DNA of 64,000 nucleotides from Bacilli bacterium (GCA_028693275.1 JAQUVS010000003.1:6046-70045); one strand, 5' to 3'; positions 17,100 through 52,218 are shown, counted from the first letter of the stretch. Notes: a model not told the origin generated them from the letters alone. Numbers and translations are program-made.

Positions 17100-17450
17100 A
17101 ATACTTTATAAGCCATGTTCTGTTCCTATTTCTAGGCGACAAACATCTATCTACCAATTTCTTGGTCCCTAACTTAGTTATTAGTTCCTTCGTTAGAGCT
17201 CCCCTACCATAATTTGGGTTTCTCACTCGTGGGGTTTACCGCGTTTCAATTAACCGTTTCCGATTAATATCGTCTCTGTGGCACTTTACAATTACTTTAA
17301 TCATATCCTAAGACTTAGATTATTTCATCGCCGTTAGCAAAGCTACCCAAGGTTATTTTTTCCCTTGGCACGAACATTAAAAACATTCCAGTTTTTGTGA
17401 GCATGGACTTTCCTCTATATTACTTGAATACAGCGTTTGTCAAAGTATTA
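17100..17450 (-). ncRNA. rnpB: RNase P RNA, type B
   Basis: minus strand carries GAGGAAAGTCCATGCTC (P4 5' strand) and ACAGAACATGGCTTAT (P4 3' strand); P1 pairing AATACTTT/AAAGTATT; located next to gpsB as in B. subtilis. Confidence 0.85.
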
Positions 17451-31518: not shown

Positions 31519-31596
31519 TTGTCTATCCTCCTTTACTATAACTATTATGATTATATACAAAAAAGAAAGAAAAATCTACATATTTGTTGACTTTAT

Positions 31597-32455: not shown

Positions 32456-33418
32456 ATGAAGATAAAAAAATTGAATAAATATGGATTTACTTTAATTGAA
32501 TTACTTGCTGTTATAGTAATCCTTGGAGTAATAATGGTAATTGCAATACCTTTTATTACAGGTTATATAGAACGTAGTAAAAAAGATGCATTTGATGTTT
32601 CAGCATATAATATACTTGATGCTGGGAGTAAATTTTATGTCAGTGAGATGGATTATATAGATGGAATAGCTTCTGGAAAGATTTCTTTTGAAATAATAAA
32701 TAAAGAATTAGTTGGAATAGATGGAAATACTAAGAAAATAGATTTCAAGGGTACTTTACCTGATTTTGGTAAAATGCAAATTAATAGTAGTGGAGATATT
32801 GAATTATCTCTTTGTGATAAAACTTTTTGTGCTTGTAAGGCATTTACTGATAATAAAATTATTATGCAAGAAGATAATTGTTTTGTTAATAGTGAAACAG
32901 GTAATGTTGAGACAACTACTGAACCTACTACTAATACTTCTAGTACAATTACTGGAACTATAATTAGTTTTTTAAGTACTTCTACTCCTGAGGGCTATGT
33001 TAAATGTGATGGAACTATTTATAATATAGTTGATTATCCAAAGCTAGCTAATTTCATAAAAAATCAATATGGTAGTTTTAGCTTTTTTGGAGGAGATGGA
33101 ACAAATACATTTGCTGTTCCCAATATTAACGATAGGTATTTAAAAGGTTCATCTAATCCTGGTCAATATGAAAATGCGGGATTACCAGAAATATCAGGTA
33201 CTTTATCACCTAGTAGTGATGTTGGTTTTAGAAGTAATGCTTCAAGTTATGGTGGTTCTTTTTATGCTACAACTACTAAAAGAAACTTTGTCTCATCTGG
33301 AGTATCAGAACAAACATCAGTTGTAGGATTTAAAGCATCTCTTTCAAGTCCTATTTATGGTAGTTCTTCTACTGTAACTCCAAATAATTTTTCAGTGGTT
33401 TTTTATATTAAGTATTAA
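32456..33418 (+). CDS. Type IV prepilin-like protein fused to C-terminal phage tail-collar (MdpB-like) domain, copy A
   Basis: Class III signal KYG|FTLIELLAVIV; tail-collar signature YVKCDGTIYNIVDYPKLANFI...GGDGTNTFAVPNINDRYLKG; C-terminal TVTPNNFSVVFYIKY. Confidence 0.65.
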   Translation: MKIKKLNKYGFTLIELLAVIVILGVIMVIAIPFITGYIERSKKDAFDVSAYNILDAGSKFYVSEMDYIDGIASGKISFEIINKELVGIDGNTKKIDFKGTLPDFGKMQINSSGDIELSLCDKTFCACKAFTDNKIIMQEDNCFVNSETGNVETTTEPTTNTSSTITGTIISFLSTSTPEGYVKCDGTIYNIVDYPKLANFIKNQYGSFSFFGGDGTNTFAVPNINDRYLKGSSNPGQYENAGLPEISGTLSPSSDVGFRSNASSYGGSFYATTTKRNFVSSGVSEQTSVVGFKASLSSPIYGSSSTVTPNNFSVVFYIKY

Positions 33419-33447: not shown

Positions 33448-34404
33448 TTAATATTTTATAAAATATAATACCGATACATTTTCAGGTGTTACAGTTGTTG
33501 ATTTTCCATATATTGGATTGGATAAGCTTGCATCAAATAGCGCATCAATAACACCGTATCCTCCACTTCCAACAGGACTTCTTGATGTTCCGTTATAGAA
33601 TGCCCCGGTTCTTCCGATCCAAGAAATAGTACTTCCTAAACCTCCTGTTATATTAGGTAAGCCCGCTTCTTCAAGTGTTCCGGCAACAGTTGCTCCTTTT
33701 AAAAATTTATTTACATAATTTGGTAGATTAAATGTCGTTGTTCCGTCTCCTGAACCATATTTTGTTCCTATAATATCAAATAAATTTTTATATGTTGTTC
33801 TAGATATTTCTCTACCGTCGCAAAGGATATATCCTGAAGGAACAGTTGGAGCAGCACTAGCAAAAATAGTTCCTATTGGAGTTGAGTCACTTTTTGCGGA
33901 TAACTCATTTACCTTTTGCTGTAATTCTATAACTAGATTAGTTAATTCTTGATTATTATATTCTGTTATAGTTGCTTCACTACCAAGATATATTGCACTT
34001 GTTCCTAATGGTATATTACAATTTTCTCCACTAACAGTTGTTACTTCTTTGTCACTATAGTTTTTATATGCAGTATACTTACCATTATTTATACATACTG
34101 CTACATTTCCTAATCTATCTACAAGCATAGAACCATCTTCTATTTTTCCTTTGTATTCTAATCTTTCACCATCTGGTGTTGTTAAATTTCCATTTACTAA
34201 ATCAAATCTTTGACTAGTATCTACTTCTTTTTCTGTATAATACCAACTAAGGACATCAATTATTCCATATGCACTTTTTTCTACTGATTTTAAATTAGCT
34301 TTAACTATATAATTGGTTACCATAGGTATAGATATTGTTGAAATAATTGTTACAATTAAAATAACTGCAAGTAATTCTATTAATGTAAATCCCTTTTTAT
34401 TCAT
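33448..34404 (-). CDS. Type IV prepilin-like protein fused to C-terminal phage tail-collar (MdpB-like) domain, copy B
   Basis: MNKKG|FTLIELLAVILIV; tail-collar signature GTIFASAAPTVPSGYILCDGREISRTTYKNLFDIIGTKYGSGDGTTTFNLPNYVNKFLKG; C-terminal TVTPENVSVLYFIKY. Confidence 0.65.
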   Translation of the reverse strand: MNKKGFTLIELLAVILIVTIISTISIPMVTNYIVKANLKSVEKSAYGIIDVLSWYYTEKEVDTSQRFDLVNGNLTTPDGERLEYKGKIEDGSMLVDRLGNVAVCINNGKYTAYKNYSDKEVTTVSGENCNIPLGTSAIYLGSEATITEYNNQELTNLVIELQQKVNELSAKSDSTPIGTIFASAAPTVPSGYILCDGREISRTTYKNLFDIIGTKYGSGDGTTTFNLPNYVNKFLKGATVAGTLEEAGLPNITGGLGSTISWIGRTGAFYNGTSRSPVGSGGYGVIDALFDASLSNPIYGKSTTVTPENVSVLYFIKY

Positions 34405-38970: not shown

Positions 38971-40266
38971 ATGAAGTTTATAACTGATATTGATATAGAA
39001 AAATATGAAGATTTTGTTTCAAGTAACAAAGAAAAATCACATTTCTTACAAAGTAGTTTTTGGGGAAATTTTAGTCAAAAAGAGAAAAGAATGATACCTC
39101 ACTATGTGGGTATTACTGATGATAATGATAAATTATTAGCTAGTGCACTATTACTTGAGAAGAAGTTACCTCTTGGTTTTAGTTATTTTTATTCTCCTAG
39201 GGGATATGTAATGGATTTTAATGATGATAAATTACTTAGTTTTTTTACTAATAATATTAAGACATTTGTTAAAAATAAAAAAGGGATATTTATTAAAATT
39301 GATCCCGATTTAATAATAAATAAATGGGATAAAGATGATAATCATATTGATTTAGATAATGATTATAAGAAAATTTTTGATAATTTGATTTTTTTAGGAT
39401 ACAAACATAAAGGATTTACTAAAAACTTTGAAACTAATCAACCTAGATATACTTTTAGAATAGATTTTAGTAATAAAACGGCAGAAGAAATTTTAGATAA
39501 TTTTTCTAAGACTACTAAACAAAGAATTAAAAAAGCAAAAGACTTAAATGTAAATGTCTTTATAGGTGATGAAAGTAATATTCATGATTTTTATAAGTTA
39601 ATGGAAATTACAGAAAACAGAAAAGATTTTGTTTCCCATAACGAAGAATATTACAAAGTATTATATGATATTTTGAAGAAAGAAGATAAATGTAATATTT
39701 TTTTGGGTGAGGTTAATATAAAAGAAATTATAGATAAGTATTTATTGGAAGTTAAGGATATAGATTTAGAACTAGAAGATTTAAGTAAGGAACTTAATTT
39801 AAGTAAAACAAAAAATACTAGAAAAAAAGAAATTGAAAAAAGAAAAGAAAAACTATTAACAGATATTAGTAATTATAAAAATTTATCAACAGAATATGGG
39901 GATAGAATTATTACTAATGCTCACTTTATAGTTGAATATGGGGATAAAGCATGGGTTTTATATGCTGGTAACCATAATATTTTAACTGAAGTTTGTGGAA
40001 ATTATTTAACATATAGTAATCATATTGAATACTATAAGAATAAAGGTATTAAGATATATGATCAATTTGGAACAATTGGGGATTTAAATAATAAAGAATT
40101 ATTTGGACTTCATGATTTTAAGAAAAAATTTGGTGGAGATTATATAGAATTTATTGGAGAATTTGATTTAATAACTAATAAGTTTATGTATTTTGTTTTT
40201 GTTAACTTAATTCCTTTTTATAGAAATATGGTTAAGAAGATAGCTAAAAGGAGGAAAATAAAATGA
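38971..40266 (+). CDS. FemAB-family peptidoglycan interpeptide-bridge aminoacyltransferase, paralog 1
   Basis: FemABX N-terminal pattern (FLQSSFWGNF...YSPRG), central coiled-coil insertion, C-terminal GNAT-like half. Confidence 0.75.
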   Translation: MKFITDIDIEKYEDFVSSNKEKSHFLQSSFWGNFSQKEKRMIPHYVGITDDNDKLLASALLLEKKLPLGFSYFYSPRGYVMDFNDDKLLSFFTNNIKTFVKNKKGIFIKIDPDLIINKWDKDDNHIDLDNDYKKIFDNLIFLGYKHKGFTKNFETNQPRYTFRIDFSNKTAEEILDNFSKTTKQRIKKAKDLNVNVFIGDESNIHDFYKLMEITENRKDFVSHNEEYYKVLYDILKKEDKCNIFLGEVNIKEIIDKYLLEVKDIDLELEDLSKELNLSKTKNTRKKEIEKRKEKLLTDISNYKNLSTEYGDRIITNAHFIVEYGDKAWVLYAGNHNILTEVCGNYLTYSNHIEYYKNKGIKIYDQFGTIGDLNNKELFGLHDFKKKFGGDYIEFIGEFDLITNKFMYFVFVNLIPFYRNMVKKIAKRRKIK

Positions 40267-41594
40267 AATTAATAGTACTTAACGAAGAAGAATTTAATCT
40301 TTTCGCTAGTAAACATCCTCAAGCATCTTTTTATCAAACTACTGATTGGGGTCACTTGAAGAAAACAAATGGATGGGATATGCACCTTGTTGGTTTTAAA
40401 GATGATAACAATTCCATAGTAGCTGCAACAATGCTTCTTTTTAAAACTACTCCAATTAAGATGAATATGATTTATTCTCCTAGAGGTTTTTTAATTGATT
40501 TTGATAATTTGGAATTATTGAAAGAGTTTACTAAAGAAATTGTTAATTATGCTAAGAAAAATAAAGGAATATTTATAAAATTAGATCCTTATATTATGTA
40601 CAAAGAAAGAGATATTGATGGTAATATTGTAAATGATGGAGTTAATAACGAAAAGGCTTTCAAAAACTTAATTAATTGTAAATATAAGCATTTTGGTTTT
40701 AACTTAATGCAGGATGCTCTTCAACCTAGATTTATTTTTGTTACTAAGACAAAGAATAGAACTATTGATGAAGTTATGAGTGAGATGGATTCTAAGACTA
40801 GACAAATTATTAGAAAAAATGAGAGATTATGCATTAAAACAAGAGAAATTGGTTATGATGAACTTGATAAATTCAAAGATATAATGCAACATACTGGAGA
40901 TAGAAGAGATTTTATTGATAGACCTTTAAAGTATTATCAAAATATGTATAGTAATCTTTCTAAGTCTGGAATTATTAAAATACTTTTAGCTGAGTTAGAT
41001 ACTGTTTCTTTGATTGAAAGTCTTAATAAAGAAATTGATGAATTAAAAAAAGATTACGATGACAGAAAATATAAATATGATAACGGTATTAATAAGATGA
41101 ATATAGATAAATTTAATTTAAAACAGAAGGAAGTAACAACAAATATTGAAAGAGTTAATAAGAAACTCGATGAAGTTTTAACTTTACAAAAAGAAAATGG
41201 AGAGATAATTACTCTTGGAGGAATATTATTTTTAATCCATGGTGGTGAAGTTTTATCTTTAGTTGGTGGTTCATATAAAAAGTTTATGGAATATCAATCT
41301 GCTTATACTATTCACTGGGCTGGTGTAAAAATGGCCATTGAAGGTAATTATGATAGATATAATTTCTACGGTATAACAGGTGACTTTAATCCTTCAAATC
41401 CTTTACTTGGTCTTTATTTATTTAAGAAAAGTTTTGGTGGAGTAGTTGTAGAATTAATTGGAGAGTTTGACCTTATAGTTAATAAACCCTTATATATTGG
41501 GTATAAAATAGCATTCGGATTATACCATTTTCTAAAAAATGGTTATTCAAGACTTATAAAGGTTGTTAAAATTGTTTTTTCAAAGCAAAAATAA
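40263..41594 (+). CDS. FemAB-family aminoacyltransferase, paralog 2
   Basis: FYQTTDWGHLK...YSPRGF; coiled-coil arm; 4-nt overlap with paralog 1. Confidence 0.75.
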   Translation: MKLIVLNEEEFNLFASKHPQASFYQTTDWGHLKKTNGWDMHLVGFKDDNNSIVAATMLLFKTTPIKMNMIYSPRGFLIDFDNLELLKEFTKEIVNYAKKNKGIFIKLDPYIMYKERDIDGNIVNDGVNNEKAFKNLINCKYKHFGFNLMQDALQPRFIFVTKTKNRTIDEVMSEMDSKTRQIIRKNERLCIKTREIGYDELDKFKDIMQHTGDRRDFIDRPLKYYQNMYSNLSKSGIIKILLAELDTVSLIESLNKEIDELKKDYDDRKYKYDNGINKMNIDKFNLKQKEVTTNIERVNKKLDEVLTLQKENGEIITLGGILFLIHGGEVLSLVGGSYKKFMEYQSAYTIHWAGVKMAIEGNYDRYNFYGITGDFNPSNPLLGLYLFKKSFGGVVVELIGEFDLIVNKPLYIGYKIAFGLYHFLKNGYSRLIKVVKIVFSKQK

Positions 41595-41595
41595 G

Positions 41596-41620
41596 CATAT
41601 AAATGCTTATTTTTTTATTT
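41596..41620. terminator. Bidirectional terminator between femAB-2 and the sigma gene
   Basis: hairpin AAGCATATAAATGCTT followed by T7. Confidence 0.5.
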
Positions 41621-42375
41621 TATAATCTTTTTGTATTTATTTTGTCTGATTTTATAAACAAAACAACAAATAAAATCAAACTTATTACTGAAAGAATTAA
41701 TAAAAGGATATTTAAATCAAAGATTGGATTTGAACTACCTAATTTTGCCGTTTCTAGTACGAAACTATCATTAAGTGGGACACTCCTATCTGTAGGTATT
41801 TCTAGTGCCTTACTTCTATATATTAAACTTACTGTAGATATTATAAAAGTAGAGAATAATCCAGTTAGTACTGTTCTTAATTTTTTGATTGATGTGTTAT
41901 ATTTCCACATAACTGTTCCTATTGGAATATTTAACATATCTGAAATTTCTTTATGACTCAATCCACATATTATTTTTAATGTTACTATCTGTCTTTGTTG
42001 TTCATTTAATGAGTTTATTAAATGATTACAAGAATCCATATCAACTAAAGTTTCTATAGACTTATCAAGAACAGGTATTTCACTTATGTCGTCGATTGAT
42101 ATTTCTTTTTTTTCTTTTCTTAATAACTGTAATGTTTCATTCTTAACAACTTTGTACAACCAACTAAGTTCATTTTTTGTTGGATATTTATTTGAATTTA
42201 GTTTATATAAGTTAAGCATTGTATTTTGGATTGCATCCTTGCTTATTTCATCATCTCTACATATTGAAAATGCAACACCATACATTACTCTAAAGTAATT
42301 ATCATATAGTAATTTAAATCCATATGAATCATAATTTTTTAATAATTCAAATATTGTACTTAGTTTTATATTCAT
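41620..42375 (-). CDS. ECF-type sigma-70 factor fused to a C-terminal two-TM membrane anchor
   Basis: region 2 (DAIQNTMLNLYK, WLYKVVKNETLQLLRK) and region 4 (LSHKEISDMLNIPIGTVMWKYNTSIKKLR), then two predicted TM helices; ATG at 42375 lies 1 nt after the upstream stop. Confidence 0.7.
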   Translation of the reverse strand: MNIKLSTIFELLKNYDSYGFKLLYDNYFRVMYGVAFSICRDDEISKDAIQNTMLNLYKLNSNKYPTKNELSWLYKVVKNETLQLLRKEKKEISIDDISEIPVLDKSIETLVDMDSCNHLINSLNEQQRQIVTLKIICGLSHKEISDMLNIPIGTVMWKYNTSIKKLRTVLTGLFSTFIISTVSLIYRSKALEIPTDRSVPLNDSFVLETAKLGSSNPIFDLNILLLILSVISLILFVVLFIKSDKINTKRL

Positions 42376-42376
42376 G

Positions 42377-43615
42377 TTATTCACCACTTATTCCATTACT
42401 TACATGTACTTCTATATTTTCATTTATTGTAACAAATTCATTATATTTAGAAGTCCAAACGATTGTTCCCTTTTCTTTTTCTGAATTAATATACTTGACC
42501 GTATAAGTAAATTTTAAACCTTTTTGATTATACTCATAGAAGACTTTTGCTAATTCACTTTCACTTGTTCCAATCAAACTATTAAAATATGGTTTACCTA
42601 AAGAATAAATTAATTCAACCTTATTATCTGTTTCTAATTTTCTAGTACCAGCTTTAACAGATTGAGAAATTAATTGACCATAGCCAACGTTCATATTATA
42701 TAGTAATCTAATTTTAATATCAAGTTTGCTATTTAATGTTGAGGCGTTTTCGCTTGTTACACCATAGAAATTAGGGATTGTAATACCCTTACCTCCTGAT
42801 ACATTTAATTTTAATTTAGTTTCTATTGTTATTAAATCACCCATTTTTACTGATTGACTTGTTACTCTTCCGATTTCATATTTGTCATTTATAACATCAG
42901 TATAATTACAAATTATATTATTTTCAGTACACCACTTAGTAACATCCTCTTTTGATTTATCTATTAAGTTTGGTACTTCAATTTTTTTGTCATATTCAAC
43001 ATTTCCCTTAGAAATTACAATTTCTAGACTGTCACTTCTTGTAAAATTATTTTCATCCGTTGTAGCACTGGAAAAGGTATATTTTATTAACTTACCTTTT
43101 TCTATTTTTATAGAATTTTCTTCTGTGATTACTGTACATGTTAACTTATTCTTATCTATCCATTCTTTTATCTGTCTACCAGTCATGTTACTTAAATCTG
43201 GTACTTTTATTTTTTCTGATGGATCATTTCCTTTACTTATTATTATTTTAAAAGTAGAATTTTTATTTATTTTTTTTCCTGGTTTTATACTTTGTTTGAT
43301 AACAAAGTCTTCTAATATTTTATCATCATATTTTTCTTCTTCTATTAATTGTATTTTATTTTTATCTGCCCATTTTTTTGCTATAGAAGATAATTGATTA
43401 TTAAAGTCTGGTACTTCTACTTTAGATATATTGATATAAATAAATAATGATACAAGAGCTAATAATAAACCTAATGATACTTGGATTATTATTTTTTTCT
43501 TCTTTCTATTAGAATACTTTTGATCCTTTTCTATATCATATTCTACTTCTTTTATTCCTGTTTTTCTTTTGATATCTTTTTCTTCTTCTGTGAAGTTATC
43601 TAAAAAACTATTCAT
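42377..43615 (-). CDS. Kinase-less membrane protein with 4-5 extracellular PASTA repeats
   Basis: 40-aa cytoplasmic N-terminus, one TM, repeated units beginning VPD/VPN/IPN and ending ISKG/VSGG; start ATG overlaps the ABC ATPase stop (ATGAATAG). Confidence 0.7.
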   Translation of the reverse strand: MNSFLDNFTEEEKDIKRKTGIKEVEYDIEKDQKYSNRKKKKIIIQVSLGLLLALVSLFIYINISKVEVPDFNNQLSSIAKKWADKNKIQLIEEEKYDDKILEDFVIKQSIKPGKKINKNSTFKIIISKGNDPSEKIKVPDLSNMTGRQIKEWIDKNKLTCTVITEENSIKIEKGKLIKYTFSSATTDENNFTRSDSLEIVISKGNVEYDKKIEVPNLIDKSKEDVTKWCTENNIICNYTDVINDKYEIGRVTSQSVKMGDLITIETKLKLNVSGGKGITIPNFYGVTSENASTLNSKLDIKIRLLYNMNVGYGQLISQSVKAGTRKLETDNKVELIYSLGKPYFNSLIGTSESELAKVFYEYNQKGLKFTYTVKYINSEKEKGTIVWTSKYNEFVTINENIEVHVSNGISGE

Positions 43616-44285
43616 CTTTCTTTAGTATTCCTTTCTCAAGTATTAAAGTAACATCAGATTTTTTAGCAATTTCTTTGGAATGAGTAACCATTATTACACA
43701 TTTTTTATGCTCATGGGCTAAACTTGCAAATAGTTTAACTATTTCTTCTGACATTTCTTGATCTAAATTACCTGTTGGTTCATCTGCTAAAATCAGATTA
43801 ACATCTGTAGATAGTGCTCTTGCTATTGCAACTCTTTGTTGTTCACCACCTGATAATTTATTTATAGTTCTATTTCCTTTTATACTGTCTATTCCTACAT
43901 ATTTTAGGAGATTTTTTGCAACTGTTTCTTTATTTTCTGGTAATTTATTATTTGTAATACTCATTGCTACTAGAATGTTTTCTATTCCTGTCATATATGG
44001 AATTAAGTTGTAACTTTGAAAAATAATTCCTACTTTATTTCTACGATAATTATCTAATCCTATTTGTCTTATATTTATATTTTCATAATTTATTTGTCCA
44101 CTTTTTTGTTCTTCTAGGGCTGATATTAAAGATAGAAAGGTCGTTTTCCCACTTCCACTTTCACCTAAAATTGTATAAAATTTACCCTTTTCAAAATCGT
44201 ATGTTATATCCTTTAAAATGTGCCTTATTATATCTCCATCTTGATAAAAATAACTTAAATTTGAAACGCTTAATATATTTTCCAT
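43608..44285 (-). CDS. ABC transporter ATP-binding protein (MacB/FtsE-like)
   Basis: Walker A GESGSGKTT, signature LSGGEQQRVAIARAL, Walker B ILADEPTGNLD; RBS AAGGAGGT. Confidence 0.9.
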   Translation of the reverse strand: MENILSVSNLSYFYQDGDIIRHILKDITYDFEKGKFYTILGESGSGKTTFLSLISALEEQKSGQINYENINIRQIGLDNYRRNKVGIIFQSYNLIPYMTGIENILVAMSITNNKLPENKETVAKNLLKYVGIDSIKGNRTINKLSGGEQQRVAIARALSTDVNLILADEPTGNLDQEMSEEIVKLFASLAHEHKKCVIMVTHSKEIAKKSDVTLILEKGILKKDE

Positions 44286-44295
44286 ATTTACCTCC

Positions 44296-45723
44296 TTACA
44301 TTAATATCTTTCTTGGATTTATTTTTAAAGTGTAATATATTGGTAATAAAGTAGATAGAGTTACACTACCTAAGCAAACTATATATATTATAAATATGGT
44401 ATTTATATCTAAACTAACACTATATTTACTCATTATTTCTTTTTTATCTATATTATTTTGATATCCAAATTCATCATATGAAATATTATCTTCTTTAGAA
44501 CTAGAAGATATTTCATTATCTAACATCTTATTTGAAATGTTTTTTGCTAATAGATTACCACTGAATATAGATATTGATACTGCTAGTAAAGATATTATTA
44601 TTGTCTCTAAAAGAACTTGGATAGCTATATTCATTTTATATTCTCCTAAAGCTAAATATATACCTATTTCATGTTTTCTTTCTCTAAAAAATAATACTGT
44701 TATTAATCCTATTATTATTATTGAAGCTATTATTGATGCATACATTATAAAGTTAGATAAGCTTTGCATATTTTGCATTGGTCCTATAGTTTTATTATAT
44801 AATTCAGAGTTATCAGTAAATTTATATCCTGTTAACAATTTTTTTATGTTTTCATTTTTAAAGTCATCTAATTCATTTATATTTTTTAAATTAAATGTTG
44901 CTTTTATATCGAAACTATCATAATCTTCTATATTTAATTCATCATAAGAAGTTATTATTTTATTATGTATAAATTCCATAGTTTTATTAGGCATATAAAT
45001 GTAATCTACTAATGGGTTATACTCTTCTACTATTTTCCCATCTTCGTCTTTAATTAGGTTTGTTTTAGCTTCAAAGATTCCAATTACTTTGTATTCTTCC
45101 TTTATAGATTTTAAAATTTTAAAATCTACTCCTGAATAATCTTCTATATTTTTACCTAAAGTTATTGTTGAACCTACTTTTAGATTATTCTTTTTTGCTA
45201 ACTCTTTTGAAATGATTACTACATTATTTCCTTTTTCTATATCATCTTTTGTATATGTTTTTCCATCTATTATGTTAAATTTATCTAAAGTTATCTCTCT
45301 TATTATAGTACTATTTGATCCAATAATAGAAAAACTATTTTCCTGTCCTATAATAGATATTTTATCCTCAAGACTTGATGTTCTAAATAAAATGTTTTCA
45401 TTTACTAGTTTTAATGTAGTACTTTGTAAATTATAATTGTAAGAATAATAATAATCTTTTATATATGTTGATTTTCCTATTTGATTGATTTGCTTTTCTG
45501 TTAATTTTTCTGGTTCTTTATCAGTTATTTTTTCATAATCTAATTCTATTTTTATTTCTACTGGCATTTTTTCTGTGATAGATTTCTCCGTGTTTGCTAA
45601 AGCTTTTTTAACAGATATAGATCCTGCTATGACATTACTAATTAATAATATTGCCAAAAATAGTATTAATGATTTCCCTTTCCTTCTTATTATACTTGTG
45701 TAACTTCTTCTAAAAAAATTCAT
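44296..45723 (-). CDS. FtsX/MacB-type ABC permease with large extracytoplasmic domain
   Basis: N-terminal TM, approx 290-aa extracellular domain, three C-terminal TM helices; RBS GGGAG. Confidence 0.75.
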   Translation of the reverse strand: MNFFRRSYTSIIRRKGKSLILFLAILLISNVIAGSISVKKALANTEKSITEKMPVEIKIELDYEKITDKEPEKLTEKQINQIGKSTYIKDYYYSYNYNLQSTTLKLVNENILFRTSSLEDKISIIGQENSFSIIGSNSTIIREITLDKFNIIDGKTYTKDDIEKGNNVVIISKELAKKNNLKVGSTITLGKNIEDYSGVDFKILKSIKEEYKVIGIFEAKTNLIKDEDGKIVEEYNPLVDYIYMPNKTMEFIHNKIITSYDELNIEDYDSFDIKATFNLKNINELDDFKNENIKKLLTGYKFTDNSELYNKTIGPMQNMQSLSNFIMYASIIASIIIIGLITVLFFRERKHEIGIYLALGEYKMNIAIQVLLETIIISLLAVSISIFSGNLLAKNISNKMLDNEISSSSKEDNISYDEFGYQNNIDKKEIMSKYSVSLDINTIFIIYIVCLGSVTLSTLLPIYYTLKINPRKILM

Positions 45724-45838
45724 ATAAATCTCCCTTCTTTTTTTTAGATTTATCCCCCTATATATTTAGATGCAAAAAGGTGGATATTTTATTGGTTTTT
45801 AGATAAAAAAAAGAACAAATTTATTTTGTCCTTATATT

Positions 45839-47092
45839 TTATCTTCTAATTAAGTTTTTTATCTTCTTTATTAATTTATATATATAATAAAAGTTAGATA
45901 TCTTTAATTCAAATTGACCTATATATTCTATAACATTACCAGTGAATCCTTTTTTAAATTCATAAATACCATAGTATTTATTTTCTTTATTGAAGTCACC
46001 TGTTATACCATAAAAATTACAGTATTTAAAATTTTCTTGGTATGCATCTTTTATATGTTTATCATACATTGCATACTTTGGAGTGAAGCTCTTATATTCT
46101 TCTAATACTCCACTTGATAACGTTAAGTATTCATTCCCTGATTTTATTGATAATAGGCATCCTATATCTTTACCATTAGGATTCTCTTCCTTAAATTTTT
46201 TAGCTTTATCTAATTCTAATTGATATTTGTCTAAAAGCTTATCTGAAGTTTCTTTTTGATTTAGTAGCTTACTACCTACATTATCTTTATTTAGTTTTTC
46301 AATAATAATTTTATTATTTTCTAGTTCATTATTATATAATTCAAGAGTACTATTGTAGTAGATCGTTGGATCTAAATATGCTATATATATAGTCATGAGA
46401 TTACTCATGTTTTTATACATATTTTGATAATATTTTAGACTTCTATGAAAGAAGTCTTTTCTTTTAGATGTTAATTCAAATATTTCTGTTAGAGTTGGTA
46501 AATCTTCTATTTTACCTTTTCTTACTTGAAGACCTTTTTTATAACAAGAGTCTATATTTTTTCTTGTACTTTTTGAAAATTTTTGTTTTTTTGTTTCATA
46601 GTCTTCATCTAATTCTAATCTATATGCCCATCTTGCTTGAAGTGAATCTAAATAAATATTGAAACCAAAATGTTTATAATTTAATTTTTTTAGATTAGCT
46701 ATAGTAAAATCATCTTTATCATCATTTATTATTTCACCTTCACTACTTCTAGTTCTATAGATAACATTTGGATCAATAGTTAAGATGAATCCATTATTTT
46801 TCTTTATATATTTCTTTAATTCTTCTGTAAAAAAAGATAATAATTCATAGTTATGATAATCCAAAATCATTCCCCTAGGAGAATAAAAAATACTTTTATT
46901 TAAAATTGTTTTTGTTTCTAATAATAGAGATGTAGCTATTACTTTACCATCTTTTTTTATACCAACAAGATGAGGAATATCATTACTTTCTTTTTTTAAA
47001 TTACCTAGTTCTATTGTTTGCATGAAAGAGGTTTGACTATTATTACTTAAAAATTCATTATATTCATCTTTATTTAAAATCTCAAATTTCAT
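45839..47092 (-). CDS. FemAB-family aminoacyltransferase, paralog 3
   Basis: SFMQTIELGNLK...YSPRG; coiled-coil insertion; followed by short terminator GGACAAA/TTTGTTC + T8. Confidence 0.75.
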   Translation of the reverse strand: MKFEILNKDEYNEFLSNNSQTSFMQTIELGNLKKESNDIPHLVGIKKDGKVIATSLLLETKTILNKSIFYSPRGMILDYHNYELLSFFTEELKKYIKKNNGFILTIDPNVIYRTRSSEGEIINDDKDDFTIANLKKLNYKHFGFNIYLDSLQARWAYRLELDEDYETKKQKFSKSTRKNIDSCYKKGLQVRKGKIEDLPTLTEIFELTSKRKDFFHRSLKYYQNMYKNMSNLMTIYIAYLDPTIYYNSTLELYNNELENNKIIIEKLNKDNVGSKLLNQKETSDKLLDKYQLELDKAKKFKEENPNGKDIGCLLSIKSGNEYLTLSSGVLEEYKSFTPKYAMYDKHIKDAYQENFKYCNFYGITGDFNKENKYYGIYEFKKGFTGNVIEYIGQFELKISNFYYIYKLIKKIKNLIRR

Positions 47093-47096
47093 ATTA

Positions 47097-48737
47097 TTAC
47101 CTCTTTTTTCTTATTATTTTACTTATAAATTTATTAACTAATTCTTTTCCAAATATTCCAACTAGTACTCTATTTTTTAGATTTATTAAAACAAATATTC
47201 CTCCACCAACAATTGTATATAGTAATATTATTGGGATATTTAATAATCTATTAGTTTGATCTAATGGAATAACAAACTTCATTGATAAAAGAACTAAACT
47301 CATTATTATTACTGATACTATGATTTTAATTGTTTTATTAAGTGTGTCTTCATACTCTACTTTGTACTTACTATGTAAGAAGGCTAAACATATAATTACA
47401 CATATAAGGTATCCTAAAATTGTTGCTGTTGTTGCTCCATGATATGCTGGAATTCCTAATTTATGAAATCCATATACTAAAGGGGCATTGAAGATTACTT
47501 TTACTAATAATCCTGTAATTAGTGATATAAAGACAACTTTGTATTCTTTTAATACCTGAGTAATTGTAATTGTTGCTGTAAATAAAGTTGTTGCTAATGC
47601 AGTATAAATATAATAACTGAAAACATCTGTTCCTAATTTACTATATCCATAAAATATATCCCATACTGGTTGAGCTAAGATGCTTAAGCCAACTGTCATT
47701 GGTAATACTAAAAAGATTATTACTTGAATAGTTTGATTTATTTTTTTTCTAACATCAACTATGTCATTTTTAACAAAACTTCTAGTTAAATTTGGTATTA
47801 AACTTACCATTACTCCTGTTGCTATTGAGATAACTATCATAGTTAATTTAGAACCCCAAGTTGAAAATATACTTATTACTGATTCTGCTGTTGTTACCTT
47901 AAAAGATAGGTCATTAACTAATATTTTTACTAACATAACTACATCTACTGATGTATAAAGTGACTTAAATATATCTATCATTATAAAAGGGAAAGCATAT
48001 ATTAAAATTTTTCTTAATATTTGTTTATCAGAAATAAATGGTTCTTCTGTATTTGTGTTATTTTTTTCAAGTAATTCCTTGTGTTTATTGGATTTTCTTA
48101 CAAGGTATAACCAAGAAATGATGGCTCCTATTGTTGCAGAAAAGACTGATATACCTACTGTTGTTTTTAATGATAAGTTAAATACTTTTAATGATAAATA
48201 ACTTCCTAAAACTATAATTATTACTCTTACTAATTGTTCAAGTACTTGGGATACTGATGTTGGAGTAATAAATCTATGTCCTTGTAAGTACCCTCTGTAT
48301 ATACTTAATATTGGTACTATTAATATTGCTGTTGATATTACTCTAATAACAAATGTAATATCTTGGATTGAATTTCCACCTTCTACATTTCCTATTATTA
48401 AAATAGCTAATGGTTTTGCAAAGATCATTAAAATTAAGAAAGAAAATACTCCCATAATTGTTAATGCTTTTTTACCAATACTAAAAGCTCTTTCTTTTGC
48501 ATTATAATATCCTAAAACATTATATTCACTTATTATTTTACTCATTGCTAAAGGTATTCCTGCTGATGATATTCCTAAAAATATTGAATATATCGAATAG
48601 GCATATCCGTATAGTGCTCCACCTTGATTTCCAATTATTGCATAAAATGGAATAACATATATAATTCCTAAAATCTTACTTAATACAATACCCATTGTTG
48701 CTATAAATGCACCTTGGATAAACGAATTTTTTTTCAT
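47097..48737 (-). CDS. MurJ/MviN-family flippase (YtgP/SpoVB-like polysaccharide biosynthesis protein)
   Basis: 546 aa, about 14 TM helices; N-terminus LSKILGIIYVIPFYAIIGNQGGALYGYAY resembles B. subtilis YtgP. Confidence 0.75.
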   Translation of the reverse strand: MKKNSFIQGAFIATMGIVLSKILGIIYVIPFYAIIGNQGGALYGYAYSIYSIFLGISSAGIPLAMSKIISEYNVLGYYNAKERAFSIGKKALTIMGVFSFLILMIFAKPLAILIIGNVEGGNSIQDITFVIRVISTAILIVPILSIYRGYLQGHRFITPTSVSQVLEQLVRVIIIVLGSYLSLKVFNLSLKTTVGISVFSATIGAIISWLYLVRKSNKHKELLEKNNTNTEEPFISDKQILRKILIYAFPFIMIDIFKSLYTSVDVVMLVKILVNDLSFKVTTAESVISIFSTWGSKLTMIVISIATGVMVSLIPNLTRSFVKNDIVDVRKKINQTIQVIIFLVLPMTVGLSILAQPVWDIFYGYSKLGTDVFSYYIYTALATTLFTATITITQVLKEYKVVFISLITGLLVKVIFNAPLVYGFHKLGIPAYHGATTATILGYLICVIICLAFLHSKYKVEYEDTLNKTIKIIVSVIIMSLVLLSMKFVIPLDQTNRLLNIPIILLYTIVGGGIFVLINLKNRVLVGIFGKELVNKFISKIIRKKR

Positions 48738-48800: not shown

Positions 48801-51635
48801 CTATTTAGCCACTATGTTTACTATTCTATTTTTAATTACTATTACTTTTACTATTTCTTTTTCTTCTAAATGTTTTTGTACATTTGAGTCACTTAAAGCT
48901 TTTTCTTTTATTTCTTCTTCAGTATCATTAATTGCACAAATAATAGTTCCTCTTAATTTACCATTTACTTGAACAGCTATTTCTTTTTCTTCATCTATTA
49001 TTTTTTCTTCATCATATGTTGGCCATGCTGATTCACATAAAGGATTTCCTAAATGATTAATTTCATTTAATTCTTCTGTTATATGAGGAGCTATAGGATT
49101 TAATAAAGTAAGTAGTGTTCTATAGTCTTTTTGACTTATTTCTTCTTTATCAGTCATTTCATTAGTTAATATCATTAAAGCAGAAACTGCTGTGTTAAAT
49201 TTCATATTATCTATGTCTTCTGTGACTTTTTTTATTGTTTTATTAATTATCTTTTCTAAAGAAGATGAGTATTCATCTGAGTTATTTAATTTGTCTTGTA
49301 ATTTAATAACTTTATCTAAGAATCTTCTACAACCATTTAGACTTTGTTCGCTCCAAGCAGCTTCTTTTTCATAGTCTCCTATAAACATTTCATAGCATCT
49401 TAGTGCATCTGCTCCTTGTTTTTTTACAACGTCATCGGGATTTATAACATTACCCTTAGACTTAGACATTTTTTCTCCACCTTCACCAAGAATCATTCCG
49501 TGGGCTACTCTTGTCTTAAAAGGTTCTTTGTAAGGAACTAATCCAATGTTATATAGGAATTGATTCCAGAAACGAGCATATAATAAGTGTCTTGTAGCAT
49601 GTTCCATTCCACCATTATACCAATCAAGTTGTCCCCAATAATTCAATGCTTCTTTTGAAACAAATTCTTTATCATTTTTAGGATCCATGTATCTTAACCA
49701 GTACCAAGAAGATCCAGCCCAGTTAGGCATTGTATCTGTTTCTCTTTTAGCTGGTTTTCCGCATTTAGGACATGTTGTATTTACCCAACTTTCTATTTTA
49801 GCAAGTGGACTTTCACCATCATCTGTTGGTTCATACTCAGCTACATCTGGTAATAAAACAGGAAGGTCTTCTTCTTTAACTGGAACCCATCCACATTCAT
49901 CACAACATACTAAAGGTATTGGTTCTCCCCAGAATCTTTGTCTTGTAAATATCCAATCTTGTAATTTATAATTTGTTTTCTTATAACCGATTCCTTCTTT
50001 TTCTAAATACTCTAACATTTTATTTATAGATTCTTTTTTATTTGTTAAACCATTTAAGATACCAGAATTAACCATTTTGCCGTCTCCAGCATAATAATTA
50101 TTTTCTGCTAGTAAATTTCTGAATGTAGTAATATGTAATTCATCTTTTACTTCTTTTTCTATTATTTCTCTTGATACCCATTCAATTTCAAATTTACCTT
50201 TTTCGTCTTCATCAAGATTATTTGTTTCTTTCTTATCAGAAATAAGTTTAAATAATAATCCAATACTTTCTATTTCATAAGCTTTATTCTTATTATAAGC
50301 AAAATAATGATGATTAATTGGACTAATTTCTTTGATAAATCTAATATCTGTGTATCCAGTTTCTTCTTTTATTTCTCTTACAGCTGTTTCTAATGCAGTC
50401 TCATTATCTTTTCTTGTTCCCCCAATAAATAATCTTCCACCTAATTCTTTCCAATTAAGAGTTAAATATTTATTATTTTCTTCGTCATAAATAACTGCTA
50501 CTATACTATTTTTTTGTTCTTCATTTTCTCTTTGTTCACCAGTTATTTGTTCTATAACAGGGATTATTTCTATATTAAATTTACTTGCAAATTCATAGTC
50601 TCTATCATCATGTGCTGGAACAGCCATAATAGCTCCTGTTCCATAGTTCATCATAACATAATCTGAAATATAAATAGGAATTTCTTTATTTGTAATAGGA
50701 TTAATAGCTGTTAATCCATCAATTCTCACACCAGTTTTTTCTTTTGTCATATTTAATCTTTCAAATTCTGTTTTGAAATTTGTTTTTTCTCTATAATCTA
50801 TTATTTCATTCATGTTGTTTATTATTCCACTATATAGGTCTATATATGGATGTTCTGGGGCTATTACCATGAAAGTAACTCCATATAAAGTATCTGGTCT
50901 TGTTGTATATACTTTTAATTTTTCATCTATTTCTTTAATTTTAAAATCTACTTCTGCTCCTGTTGATTTTCCTATCCAATTGATTTGAGCAGTTTTTATT
51001 CTTTCTTGGAAGTCAGTCTCATCTAAACCTGTTATTAAGTCTTCTGCATAGTCTGACATTCTTAGTACCCATTGGTCTTTTTCTTTTTGAACTACAACTG
51101 ATCCACATCTTTCACAAGTTCCTCCGCTAGAATCTTCATTTGATAAACCTGTTTTACAATTAGGGCACCAGTTTATACTTTTTTTAGCTTTATATGCCAT
51201 ATCGTGTTCATAAAATTTAATAAATTGCCATTGAGTCCATTTATAGTATTCTGGATCAGTAGTAGAAAATTCTCTACTCCAATCAAATGAAATACCAAGA
51301 TCTTTTATTTGTCCCTTAAATGTTTTTATGTTTTCAGCTACTGCTTCTTTAGGATGAATATGATTTTTAATAGCATATTGTTCTGCTGGAGCCCCAAAAG
51401 CATCCCATCCCATTGGAAATAATACATTATATCCCATCATTCTTTTCTTTCTTGCCATTGTATCAATTGCTGTATAGCTTCTTACATGACCAACATGTAA
51501 TCCAGATCCAGATGGATATGGAAATTCTACAAGATAAAAATATTTTTCCTTATCACTATTATTTTTTGCAACAAAAGTATTATTATCATCCCAATATTTT
51601 TGCCATTTTTTTTCTATATCATTTATTGTCATCAT
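48801..51635 (-). CDS. leuS: Leucyl-tRNA synthetase carrying an inserted Nudix hydrolase domain
   Basis: HVGH and KMSKS motifs, CP1 editing domain; about 150 extra residues including a perfect Nudix box between ...IPVIEQI and AGDGKMVNSG; terminator hairpin AGTGGCTAAATAGCCACT + T-run at the 3' end. Confidence 0.95.
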   Translation of the reverse strand: MMTINDIEKKWQKYWDDNNTFVAKNNSDKEKYFYLVEFPYPSGSGLHVGHVRSYTAIDTMARKKRMMGYNVLFPMGWDAFGAPAEQYAIKNHIHPKEAVAENIKTFKGQIKDLGISFDWSREFSTTDPEYYKWTQWQFIKFYEHDMAYKAKKSINWCPNCKTGLSNEDSSGGTCERCGSVVVQKEKDQWVLRMSDYAEDLITGLDETDFQERIKTAQINWIGKSTGAEVDFKIKEIDEKLKVYTTRPDTLYGVTFMVIAPEHPYIDLYSGIINNMNEIIDYREKTNFKTEFERLNMTKEKTGVRIDGLTAINPITNKEIPIYISDYVMMNYGTGAIMAVPAHDDRDYEFASKFNIEIIPVIEQITGEQRENEEQKNSIVAVIYDEENNKYLTLNWKELGGRLFIGGTRKDNETALETAVREIKEETGYTDIRFIKEISPINHHYFAYNKNKAYEIESIGLLFKLISDKKETNNLDEDEKGKFEIEWVSREIIEKEVKDELHITTFRNLLAENNYYAGDGKMVNSGILNGLTNKKESINKMLEYLEKEGIGYKKTNYKLQDWIFTRQRFWGEPIPLVCCDECGWVPVKEEDLPVLLPDVAEYEPTDDGESPLAKIESWVNTTCPKCGKPAKRETDTMPNWAGSSWYWLRYMDPKNDKEFVSKEALNYWGQLDWYNGGMEHATRHLLYARFWNQFLYNIGLVPYKEPFKTRVAHGMILGEGGEKMSKSKGNVINPDDVVKKQGADALRCYEMFIGDYEKEAAWSEQSLNGCRRFLDKVIKLQDKLNNSDEYSSSLEKIINKTIKKVTEDIDNMKFNTAVSALMILTNEMTDKEEISQKDYRTLLTLLNPIAPHITEELNEINHLGNPLCESAWPTYDEEKIIDEEKEIAVQVNGKLRGTIICAINDTEEEIKEKALSDSNVQKHLEEKEIVKVIVIKNRIVNIVAK

Positions 51636-51993
51636 TTTTATCATTTCTCTCTTTCTTTATTATGTTTGCAAGGATGTTAAACGAAACTAAAATTATAGGT
51701 ATTAATATTACAAATCCTACTATCATTTGTAGTACAGGATTTTCTATTACAGAAATAATAGTTACTACGATAGATACATCTAAAGCAACCATTTTTGCTA
51801 TTTTTTCCATTACTTTTTTACCATTAATCTTAGATAAATCTAGTTTATATTTGTATACTAAAAACTGTAATTCTATAGGTGTTTTCTTTTTATCACTCTT
51901 TTTATATTTTCTAACATAAAGTATATAGTATAAAAAATATACACTTAAAAATGTGAGTAAGAATAAAATACCTTTGTCATATAAATCTTTCAT
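51619..51993 (-). CDS. Small two-TM membrane protein encoded between the leuS T-box leader and leuS
   Basis: RBS GGAGGAGAGG 7 nt before ATG 51993; two hydrophobic helices with a basic loop; 3' end overlaps the leuS start. Confidence 0.45.
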   Translation of the reverse strand: MKDLYDKGILFLLTFLSVYFLYYILYVRKYKKSDKKKTPIELQFLVYKYKLDLSKINGKKVMEKIAKMVALDVSIVVTIISVIENPVLQMIVGFVILIPIILVSFNILANIIKKERNDKNDDNK

Positions 51994-52014: not shown

Positions 52015-52211
52015 AAAAGATTATTCATCACATAAGGACGAATAATCGCGGTACCACCTTAATTCATAGAAATATTTTCTATGCACTTAAATCTTTAACG
52101 CTGAAGAGCGTTGTACTTAATTAGAAAGCAAGTTCATATAATAATATTCTTAGTTTTCACCATCCACTAAGTCTCTTGAAATATTATTTATACTAATACT
52201 CTTTCAGGTAC
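52015..52211 (-). promoter_or_regulatory. T-box riboswitch leader of leuS (Leu specifier CUU)
   Basis: minus strand shows AGAGA box, specifier ...UGAACUUGC..., T-box AATTAAGGTGGTACCGCG, terminator identical to the tyrS leader, T-run. Confidence 0.8.
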
Positions 52212-52218
52212 AAGTTAT

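Follow-up and report, generated by a model that had tools for sequence, protein, structure and literature searches.

The locus lies on the minus strand of a 64-kb window, by which we mean the whole stretch of DNA analyzed (64,000 nucleotides). Checking of the open reading frames confirmed the four genes that had been predicted at 44296..45723, 43608..44285, 42377..43615, and 41620..42375. In 5′ to 3′ order, these encode a MacB/FtsX-type permease (475 aa), an ABC ATPase (225 aa), a PASTA protein without a kinase domain (412 aa), and an ECF sigma factor with a two-helix membrane anchor (251 aa). The tight packing and coupling expected of them were borne out at each junction. A 10-nt spacer containing GGAGG separates the permease stop from the ATG of the ATPase gene. 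At the next junction, the end of the ATPase gene and the start of the PASTA gene share 8 nt (ATGAATAG), an overlap likewise seen in the other permease-ATPase-PASTA triads for which gene coordinates were read. The PASTA gene ends with TAA, separated by 1 nt from the sigma ATG at 42375. This ATG was preferred to the GTG at 42387 as the sigma start because the N-termini of homologs favor it.

Hairpins were located on both sides of the genes, as had been predicted. The upstream terminator-like hairpin (45805..45833, minus strand), with a 9-bp stem and U8, is weak (−6.6 kcal/mol, z = −2.1); it ends the upstream FemAB gene and delimits the unit on its 5′ side. A hairpin plus T-run was also found at the equivalent position in loci L001, L008, and L009. 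The stronger downstream terminator hairpin (41585..41614, minus strand; −11.5 kcal/mol, z = −4.3) closes the 3′ end of the unit and is so placed that it may serve the convergent FemAB gene as well. Neither hairpin was detected by the standard terminator scan because that scan requires at least 3 G-C pairs. Since a conserved promoter precedes the first gene, terminators lie on either side, and the gene order is kept, the four genes are best regarded as one transcription unit, as previously supposed. When the gene neighborhood of the sigma protein was searched, the four-gene order was found again in at least 11 loci with differing flanks; the arrangement is, therefore, not due to chance.

The permease matched FtsX (PF02687, 5.8e-11) and MacB_PCD (PF12704, 2.7e-9) in Pfam, and MacB was its sole match, a weak one, in a PDB sequence search. 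Hydropathy indicated four TM helices (aa 20–38, 326–344, 366–384, and 442–460), with an extracytoplasmic domain of ~285 aa between TM1 and TM2. The ATPase belongs to the MacB/LolD/FtsE-like subfamily (ABC_tran, 8e-32). Judged by these domains, the two proteins are a type VII (MacB/FtsX-like) ABC transporter, and the label of an FtsX-type transporter given to them earlier holds. Orthology to FtsE and FtsX was rejected, with scores of 166.8 vs 264.85 for FtsE (TIGR02673) and 18.9 vs 250 for FtsX (FtsX_actino, NF038346). A BceAB-type transporter, defined by a permease of ten TM helices whose outside domain lies between TM7 and TM8 and by a paired two-component system, was also rejected, since this permease has four TM helices and the operon encodes neither a histidine kinase nor a response regulator. 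The permease shares 47–48% identity with its counterparts in ABC–PASTA triads that have other regulators.

The 412-aa protein begins with a disordered cytoplasmic N-terminus of ~30 residues, followed by a single-pass TM helix (aa 32–63) and five PASTA units (aa 66–128, 138–204, 212–275, 278–338, and 343–406). Pfam recognized PASTA repeats in four stretches (PF03793, 2.1e-32), and AlphaFold2 (AF2) modeled five alpha+beta units with pLDDT of ~90, each conforming to the PASTA fold of one helix and three strands in ~65 aa per repeat. The best Foldseek matches were the ectodomains of PrkC (3.8e-13) and PknB (1.6e-11). Against the Stk1/PrkC kinase model NF033483, the protein scored 129.7 bits (cutoff 450) and aligned with model positions 313–523 only. 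The Pfam search revealed no kinase domain (no Pkinase match) and no PBP domain, and neither Pfam nor AF2 revealed a hydrolase or coiled-coil activator domain. Thus, the original prediction of a PASTA protein lacking a catalytic domain was upheld on both points. Conservation is highest in the distal unit (26/64 positions invariant). Muropeptides, lipid II, and beta-lactams are ligands associated with PASTA domains, but it should be kept in mind that not all of these domains bind muropeptides.

Comparison of orthologs further identified a motif, MxSFLxxFxEE, at aa 1–12 of the PASTA protein (codons 43580..43615, minus strand). The motif is kept alike in orthologs under a sigma factor of the present type (hereafter sigma-2TM) and under a sigma/anti-sigma pair, and in decayed loci it has been deleted along with the ABC genes. 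Because it is conserved whatever the regulator, the motif suggests docking of the PASTA protein to the ABC transporter and not to the sigma factor. The 1-nt PASTA–sigma junction would also fit a stoichiometric PASTA–sigma complex.

The 251-aa product of the last gene contains sigma-2 (aa 23–90), sigma-4 (aa 119–167), TM1 (aa 168–190), and TM2 (aa 221–243). An outside loop at about aa 191–220, variable in sequence and disordered in AF2, connects the two helices, and a basic cytoplasmic tail follows TM2. Pfam matches to Sigma70_r2 (1.6e-7) and r4/r4_2 (5e-11) and a score of 66.9 bits against the ECF model TIGR02937 (cutoff 42.9) upheld its membership in the sigma-70 family. The profile search also matched the structures of SigW, SigH, and SigE, SigW being the best solved relative. 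By these matches, the protein is a genuine ECF (group 4) sigma factor. That it carries its own membrane anchor, as had been proposed, was likewise evident, since two hydrophobic helices were found by hydropathy and AF2. In the AF2 model, sigma-2 is confidently folded (pLDDT >90), the linker between sigma-2 and sigma-4 (aa 92–110) is long and disordered, and one helix (aa 152–190) joins sigma-4 to TM1. Domain searches and AF2 revealed no anti-sigma domain in the extension or in any neighboring gene product, and no anti-sigma or zinc-finger domain lies between the end of sigma-4 (~aa 167) and the start of TM1 (aa 168). Across the sigma-2TM family, small residues or glycine often occupy the outer end of TM1, and we propose TM1 (codons 41806..41874, minus strand) as the candidate site of intramembrane release.

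A family-specific ECF-type promoter, CCAATAAAAT-N12-GCATCTAAAT, was identified at 45764..45795 (minus strand), ending ~40 nt before the start codon of the permease gene. Its consensus, CCAATAAAAT-N12-RCATCYAAAT, is kept before the permease gene in four orthologous loci whose flanks are unrelated and whose intergenic DNA is otherwise divergent. In the scan, which covered the 64-kb window only, the motif occurred once. The motif of the whole sigma-2TM family, CAAY-AAAA, N12–13, GCATCYAA, lies in front of either the operon or the sigma gene and always on the coding strand. It precedes the sigma gene in 30 of the 86 family loci and recurs at the 3′ end of that gene in 38 of the 86; the opposite strand gave 0 hits, compared with ~2.5 hits expected from shuffles. 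In this wider family, CAACAAAA-N13-GCATCTAA overlaps the last sigma codons such that its final three bases form the stop codon. The window retains at 41620..41649 (minus strand) a degenerate remnant of this embedded promoter of the family's "+1 gene," together with the conserved tail (SDKINTKRL plus stop); it shows mismatches and wrong spacing, and probably is not functional here. Since the conserved ECF-like promoter upstream of the permease is shared with the sigma-2TM family, the operon is probably autoregulated, that is, under the control of its own sigma factor. The promoter scan revealed no sigma-A-type promoter for basal expression; as a guess, read-through of the weak upstream terminator might prime the loop.

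The operon had been described as embedded in a cell-wall locus, flanked by three FemAB paralogs and a MurJ-family flippase. The three FemAB proteins were confirmed. The 546-aa flippase matched Polysacc_synt (88.6 bits) and scored 22.6 against MurJ, below the cutoff of 27.4; it is therefore assigned to the MOP family and is not proven to be MurJ. These flanks recur in an 87%-identical relative only and are absent from relatives at 56–61% identity, and the window scan revealed no copy of the sigma promoter at the FemAB and flippase genes. The idea of a cell-wall locus was thus not supported, as the flanks are not kept and the promoter motif occurs once in 64 kb.

The sigma factor and the transporter genes differ in their distribution. 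The sigma-2TM family comprises 218 clusters at 50% identity (E ≤ 1e-30). Its usual partner is a downstream (+1) lipoprotein gene, not PASTA, and most of its genes have no PASTA or ABC neighbor within 8 kb. Only the window clade, nested inside the lipoprotein-partnered family, carries ABC–PASTA. The permease-ATPase-PASTA triad forms a cassette of its own with a wider distribution; orthologous triads (47–51% identity) lie beside a different ECF sigma with its own anti-sigma, either upstream or downstream, or beside an XRE or MerR regulator. The anti-sigma of such pairs has its own outside domain of ~130 aa, and the XRE-type regulator beside some intact triads is a 78-aa protein with HTH domains only. 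In one lineage, the cassette is decaying and dispensable. By these distributions, the operon is an assembly of two separable modules, sigma-2TM and the ABC–PASTA triad, and not a single sensor chain. Therefore, of the proposal that PASTA senses and ABC transduces, the parts stood as real and conserved, whereas a dedicated chain from PASTA through ABC to sigma was not supported, because sigma-2TM genes mostly lack these neighbors, triads occur under other regulators, and the N-terminal motif is independent of the regulator. The system had been called unrecognized, and indeed neither module was found described in the literature searched.

We consider it somewhat probable that these two modules together make up an autoregulated ECF sigma operon, and our best reading is a membrane-held envelope-stress sigma factor that would induce itself and an ABC–PASTA effector. 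The first module would be an ECF sigma without an anti-sigma domain, whose last sigma-4 helix continues into a two-helix membrane hairpin and which would recognize CAAY-AAAA, 12–13 nt, GCATCYAA. The second would comprise the type VII transporter and a single-pass accessory subunit with five PASTA units and no kinase. The tethered sigma is presumed inactive because sigma-4 is pinned at the membrane, and it would be freed by intramembrane cleavage of TM1, a step modeled on pro-sigma-K/SpoIVFB and on the fused sigma/anti-sigma IutY. Since the sigma promoter precedes the permease gene in the window lineage, active sigma would then induce the transporter, the PASTA protein, and more sigma. The PASTA protein would be a transporter subunit, docked via its N-terminal cytoplasmic motif and TM helix, and the complex would be the response effector and not the primary sensor. 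Its target may be linked to peptidoglycan or lipid II, as in protection against a cell-wall-directed compound.

Alternatively, ABC–PASTA could bind a cell-wall ligand, and the sigma anchor could read the transporter cycle within the membrane, whereby sigma is freed or activated; the transporter would then be sensor and output both. Co-transcription is conserved, the PASTA–sigma junction is 1 nt long, and the anchor, with its short, variable, disordered outside loop, resembles intramembrane-sensing kinases. Those of the BceS type depend on an ABC partner (BceS/BceAB). The triad has also acquired two unrelated kinds of membrane-bound ECF regulator, and with such regulators (sigma-2TM or anti-sigma), the transporter could be a sensor, as in Bce systems. 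This reading is nevertheless rather unlikely. Most sigma-2TM genes lack an ABC or PASTA neighbor within 8 kb, and the family therefore does not depend on them for signaling; the anti-sigma of linked triads has its own outside domain, intact triads also lie beside the small HTH regulator, and the PASTA motif does not vary with regulator type.

Quite unlikely, in our view, is a sigma that is active while tethered and recruits RNA polymerase to membrane-proximal DNA, with conformational gating by the hairpin and no proteolysis. Membrane-bound one-component regulators such as ToxR, CadC, and BcrR exist, the sigma-2/sigma-4 linker is long and disordered, and no anti-sigma domain holds sigma-2 and sigma-4 apart. 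However, the last sigma-4 helix is continuous with TM1 in AF2 and thus leaves little room for the beta-flap and −35 DNA, and the known membrane-fused or -associated sigmas, IutY (PMC8999054) and pro-sigma-K, are activated by cleavage.

The operon could also encode an FtsEX-like morphogenetic device that governs a peptidoglycan hydrolase or synthase in growth, with sigma as a lineage-specific expression switch and no stress response. The type VII fold, the large outside domain, and the FemAB and flippase genes adjoining the operon in the window genome agree with it, as does the pairing of FtsEX with extracytoplasmic proteins (PcsB, CwlO, EnvC, and RipC). Yet it is highly improbable, as the transporter proteins are not FtsE/FtsX orthologs, neither a hydrolase nor a coiled-coil activator domain is present in the PASTA protein, the cassette is dispensable and in decay in one lineage, the regulators beside it belong to the stress or resistance type, and the flanks are not conserved. 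Fortuitous adjacency without any functional sigma–ABC–PASTA link is scarcely credible: the modules do occur apart, but gene order and the relocated sigma promoter are kept at 56–61% protein identity amid unrelated flanks, and an unrelated ECF pair is joined to the same triad elsewhere.

Among known systems, SigW-RsiW, SigV-RsiV, and SigE-RseA share with the preferred reading a group 4 sigma with sigma-2 and sigma-4 only (SigW being the best solved match), a bipartite −35/−10 promoter, positive autoregulation, and membrane sequestration, here predicted. In those systems, sigma is released by regulated intramembrane proteolysis. The window sigma differs in having neither a separate anti-sigma nor an anti-sigma domain; as sigma is itself the membrane protein, the protease would act on it instead of on an inhibitor. 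In the IutY/ECF243 fusion, ECF48/52/53 (such as SCO4117), and ECF263, a C-terminal TM extension similarly replaces the stand-alone anti-sigma, and activation by proteolysis was shown for IutY and proposed for other TM-extended ECF sigmas (PMC8999054, PMC7826278). In contrast, the extensions of those proteins place an anti-sigma or zinc-finger domain ahead of the membrane and carry large domains outside it, and ECF263 has 5–7 TM helices compared with two here; in the window sigma, TM1 begins within a few residues of sigma-4, and the outside loop has ~30 variable residues. The hosts of sigma-2TM, unlike theirs, are low-GC Firmicutes. In pro-sigma-K/SpoIVFB, too, sigma itself associates with the membrane, is inactive, and is switched on by a site-2-type intramembrane protease, as proposed here, although pro-sigma-K is a group 3 sporulation sigma with an N-terminal prosequence and no true TM hairpin.

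In BceRS-BceAB and other resistance ABC transporters linked to regulators of envelope stress, a type VII ABC transporter is likewise tied genetically to a membrane-embedded transducer that has hardly any outside domain, and the transporter is induced by the regulator; the window operon differs by a permease of 4 and not 10 TM helices, a sigma factor in place of histidine kinase and response regulator, and a PASTA accessory protein. FtsEX and MacAB/YknXYZ, which act by mechanotransmission, share the MacB_PCD plus FtsX permease with its ATPase as a separate protein, and their operons encode a further envelope protein, whereas here that partner, a TM-anchored PASTA chain, has no hydrolase, coiled-coil, or membrane-fusion domain. 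With PrkC, Stk1, PknB, and StkP, the PASTA protein shares a TM helix and a PASTA chain homologous to the kinase ectodomain. It differs from these and from PASTA-bearing PBPs by the lack of a kinase or transpeptidase domain, and from the PASTA kinases by its short, disordered cytoplasmic part carrying the conserved motif.

All four minus-strand genes of the predicted operon were found at their coordinates, encoding a permease (44296..45723), an ATPase (43608..44285), a PASTA protein (42377..43615), and an extracytoplasmic function (ECF) sigma factor (41620..42375). The junctions are tight. The ATPase ATG is preceded by a 10-nt spacer containing GGAGG after the permease stop, the ATPase stop and PASTA start overlap by 8 nt, and a single base separates the PASTA stop from the sigma ATG at 42375, a start favoured over the GTG at 42387 by the N-termini of homologs. 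Terminators had been predicted at both ends, and direct folding of the DNA confirmed a hairpin at each: an AT-rich one followed by U8 lies 3′ of the upstream FemAB gene (45805..45833, -6.6 kcal/mol), and a stronger one lies 3′ of the sigma gene (41585..41614, -11.5 kcal/mol). A pattern-based terminator scan of the window picked up neither hairpin, because it demands three G-C pairs.

Domain searches assigned a function to each product. The permease (475 aa) contains MacB_PCD and FtsX domains with four hydrophobic helices and, when compared with the PDB by sequence, matched MacB alone and weakly. The ATPase (225 aa) belongs to the MacB/LolD/FtsE-like ABC proteins. The 412-aa protein matched PASTA at 2e-32 and no other domain, in agreement with the claim that it carries no catalytic domain; the match of the Stk1-family kinase model to it was confined to the ectodomain part of that model (positions 313-523). 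The 251-aa protein contains sigma-70 regions 2 and 4 and scored above the ECF superfamily cutoff, so that its assignment to the sigma-70 family also held. In the predicted structure of the PASTA protein, a disordered N-terminus (aa 1-30) and one transmembrane helix (aa 32-63) are followed by five alpha+beta units with pLDDT around 90, which Foldseek groups with the PASTA domains of PrkC, PknB, and PBP2x. Conservation is highest in the fifth, membrane-distal unit, where 26 of 64 positions are invariant.

In the structure model of the sigma factor, sigma-2 is predicted confidently (pLDDT above 90) and is joined by a disordered linker (aa 92-110) to sigma-4, whose last helix runs unbroken into the first membrane helix (aa 152-190). 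After a disordered loop on the outside (aa 191-220), the chain enters a second membrane helix (aa 221-243). This layout indicates that the sigma factor carries its own membrane anchor, as had been proposed, and that the anchor directly follows sigma-4. The model showed no trace of an anti-sigma domain and has no room for one.

An exact-sequence lookup of the window sigma returned no match; the entry on record, P0001, is a 254-aa call of the same gene. A word-index search recovered 122 relatives, nearly all of 240-280 aa and thus carrying the C-terminal extension. We refer to these ECF sigma factors with a two-helix C-terminal anchor as sigma-2TM. An exhaustive profile search at E<=1e-30 yielded 218 clusters at 50% identity, clearly apart from ordinary ECFs, and 238 matching stretches were confirmed as relatives in a scan of species-representative genomes, from which the 80 loci kept were mostly of Clostridia. 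The top identity to the window sigma in the representative genome set was 61%. The family alignment showed that sigma-2 and sigma-4 are conserved, that TM1 begins directly after sigma-4, and that a variable loop separates TM1 from TM2; the C-terminal tail (..SDKIPTKR..RI) is conserved as well. Sigma-2TM forms a distinct family of uncharacterised sigma factors that are integral membrane proteins in their own right and have a clear promoter signature.

ORFs were called in the 86 homologous loci from other genomes (designated L plus a number) fetched by then, and were queried with the four window proteins. The permease-ATPase-PASTA-sigma order did recur, but in the closest sigma clade only (56-61% sigma identity; L001-3, L007-9), and later lookups found it also in L089, L091, L092, L094, and L119. 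PASTA and FtsX were absent within 8 kb of every other sigma-2TM member among the 86 loci. Elsewhere, the gene downstream of sigma-2TM encodes a product whose N-terminus is hydrophobic and often includes a lipobox, and these products are of several unrelated kinds (DUF3221, DUF4362, trypsin-like, and SLH-bearing). In a neighbour-joining tree, the window clade was nested within the sigma-2TM family, indicating that the link to the ABC transporter and PASTA protein is derived.

The DNA upstream of the permease was aligned for the window, L001, L008, and L009. One conserved island, CCAATAAAAT-N12-RCATCYAAAT, stands out from otherwise divergent DNA, directly after the upstream terminator. No further copy was detected in the window with <=3 mismatches or variable spacing; thus, the FemAB and flippase genes nearby are not predicted targets. 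Across the family, the same bipartite motif, in the form CAACAAAA-N13-GCATCTAA, precedes the sigma start by 50-60 nt in 30 of the 86 loci, and in 38 there is a second copy where the sigma ORF ends. The opposite strand of the same loci gave 0 matches, with about 2.5 expected in shuffles. In the wider family (L004-L086), the predicted promoter of the downstream lipoprotein gene occupies the final ~29 nt of the sigma coding sequence (for example, L005:8728-8756 and L010:8716-8744), and CCA-ACA-AAA-CGx within the motif codes for the conserved PTKR. Of the 38 loci with a 3′ copy, 27 have the sigma stop codon as the final triplet of the motif; in a few loci, the motif comes after the stop codon. The conserved sigma tail is therefore predicted to be largely a shadow of this promoter, and the loci with the motif past the stop codon led us to set aside a protein-level regulatory role of the SDKIPTK tail. 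We regard this overlap of promoter and stop codon as a clean example of how a signal in the DNA can shape a conserved stretch of protein.

In the window clade, the downstream lipoprotein gene and its promoter are gone, and the window sigma tail, SDKINTKRL, is degenerate with the wrong motif spacing. The upstream copy would now drive all four genes as one ~4.2-kb transcript, with a single predicted start ~7 nt past GCATCTAAAT. These promoter sequences provide strong, though indirect, evidence that the operon is sigma-dependent and autoregulated.

The permease-ATPase-PASTA triad was also found under other regulators. Full-length, kinase-less relatives of the PASTA protein (403-449 aa) are numerous, and some are found on hundreds of gut-metagenome contigs; context lookups together with a metagenome scan recovered triads at 47-51% identity. 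In L087, L096, L097, L103, L108, L111, L114, L118, and L121, an ECF sigma factor of ordinary length (183 aa), distinct from sigma-2TM, lies in front of the triad together with a 206-aa single-pass protein, which looks like its anti-sigma; in L090, the same pair comes after the triad. The 183-aa sigma shares about 30% identity with the window sigma over just 54 residues and has its own ECF-like upstream motif, TGTAAGRTTT..TCGTTA. In L087:4560-4740, L097, L103, L108, L118, and L121, this motif (with a spacer of N~13) lies upstream of the 183-aa sigma gene and is preceded by an extended -10 element (TGnTAAAAT), an arrangement that suggests dual promoters in these cassettes. A divergent XRE-type regulator adjoins the triad in L100-102, L109, and L113, and a MerR regulator in L088. 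The 8-nt ATPase-PASTA overlap was retained wherever triad gene coordinates were read, and the cytoplasmic PASTA motif MSSFLExFxEE..GI was retained under either sigma type. We rejected the PASTA N-terminus as an anti-sigma because it is short and disordered and its conservation does not depend on the type of sigma. We also observed decay of the cassette in one gut lineage, where the permease is split into two ORFs (L088:6323-7311, L095:2695-3684), and L122:5929-7086 has lost the ABC genes and the PASTA 5′ end, leaving an N-terminally truncated PASTA protein. At L100:180-3261, an intact XRE-linked triad sits beside a second ABC system with a 789-aa double-FtsX permease, which hints at a clustering of envelope-resistance transporters.

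The exchange of sigma-2TM, sigma/anti-sigma pair, XRE, and MerR is typical of effector or resistance cassettes. The PASTA protein stays with the transporter whichever regulator is present, and we therefore read it as a putative accessory component of a type VII ABC transporter complex. The unit joins two modules, a swappable regulator and an ABC–PASTA transporter, and we read sigma-2TM as a lineage-specific, self-amplifying switch. The membrane-tethered sigma is probably inactive, since in the model sigma-4 and TM1 share one continuous helix, and it may be freed by intramembrane cleavage, by analogy the simplest mechanism. Pro-sigma-K is a conceptual precedent for such release. IutY provides a further precedent (PMC8999054).

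The original prediction was correct in its observations and in part only in its interpretation, a chain in which PASTA senses the cell wall, the ABC transporter transduces, and the membrane-held sigma responds. The swappable regulators argue against this chain; a Bce-like version is conceivable, and less parsimonious than two joined modules. In the boldest reading, sigma-2TM would be a one-component, intramembrane-sensing sigma that reads the ABC cycle while the PASTA subunit grips lipid II or nascent peptidoglycan, which we consider unlikely. If true, it would be the sigma-factor counterpart of Bce-type flux sensing, and the PASTA protein would be the first kinase-less one acting as substrate-recognition subunit in an ABC system that guards the cell-wall precursor cycle. 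The triads indicate that a PASTA protein without a kinase can serve as the dedicated partner of a MacB-type ABC transporter, a combination widespread in gut Firmicutes that extends the PASTA role past that in kinases and PBPs. The cassette is a candidate resistance determinant, provided that it gives protection against cell-wall-active compounds.

The operon had also been described as embedded in a cell-wall locus. Three FemAB paralogs do flank it: two on the plus strand (38971..41594) share 4 nt (40263..40266) and run towards the operon terminator from the opposite side, and the third lies upstream (45839..47092). The 546-aa flippase further upstream (47097..48737) is of the MOP family by Polysacc_synt; MurJ, the family that had been claimed, scored below its cutoff. 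The embedding itself was not supported, as the flanks of the closest clade differ from those of the window; the LeuRS-flippase-FemAB flanks are common only to an 87%-identical relative. Three FemAB genes in 8 kb suggest a multi-residue peptidoglycan cross-bridge in this organism. Elsewhere in the window, the leucyl-tRNA synthetase (48801..51644, minus strand), with a T-box leader upstream (52031..52212), contains a NUDIX domain (aa 380-495, 4.3e-10) directly after its editing domain (aa 222-377), an insertion also present in the relative L089. Two pilin-like proteins with an N-terminal methylation motif and a phage tail-collar domain are encoded between rpsD and tyrS (32456..33418, plus; 33448..34404, minus). 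The class B RNase P RNA (17104..17448) and the EzrA homolog (29806..31560), both on the minus strand, together with the rpsD-tyrS arrangement and about 25% GC, fit a low-GC Firmicute.

The literature searched contained no description of this system, in accordance with the original prediction. Searches on membrane-tethered sigma factors and TM-extended ECFs returned general ECF reviews or unrelated papers only, and those on kinase-less PASTA proteins, or on PASTA with MacB, FtsX, or anti-sigma, found nothing relevant. ECF diversity reviews describe C-terminal TM-helix extensions in Actinobacteria and Proteobacteria, as well as group ECF263 with a 5-7-TM extension (PMC7826278, PMC8999054). However, the bare two-helix anchor of sigma-2TM in Firmicutes and the PASTA link are absent from these reviews. 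The unit fits the definitions of ECF sigma factors, PASTA proteins, and MacB-type ABC transporters, but falls outside PASTA kinases, FtsEX, BceAB, and the fused sigma/anti-sigma ECFs. It demonstrates no new principle as yet; it combines an uncharacterised family of membrane-integral ECF sigma factors with an ABC–PASTA cassette that had not been described before and that the sigma has been rewired to drive.
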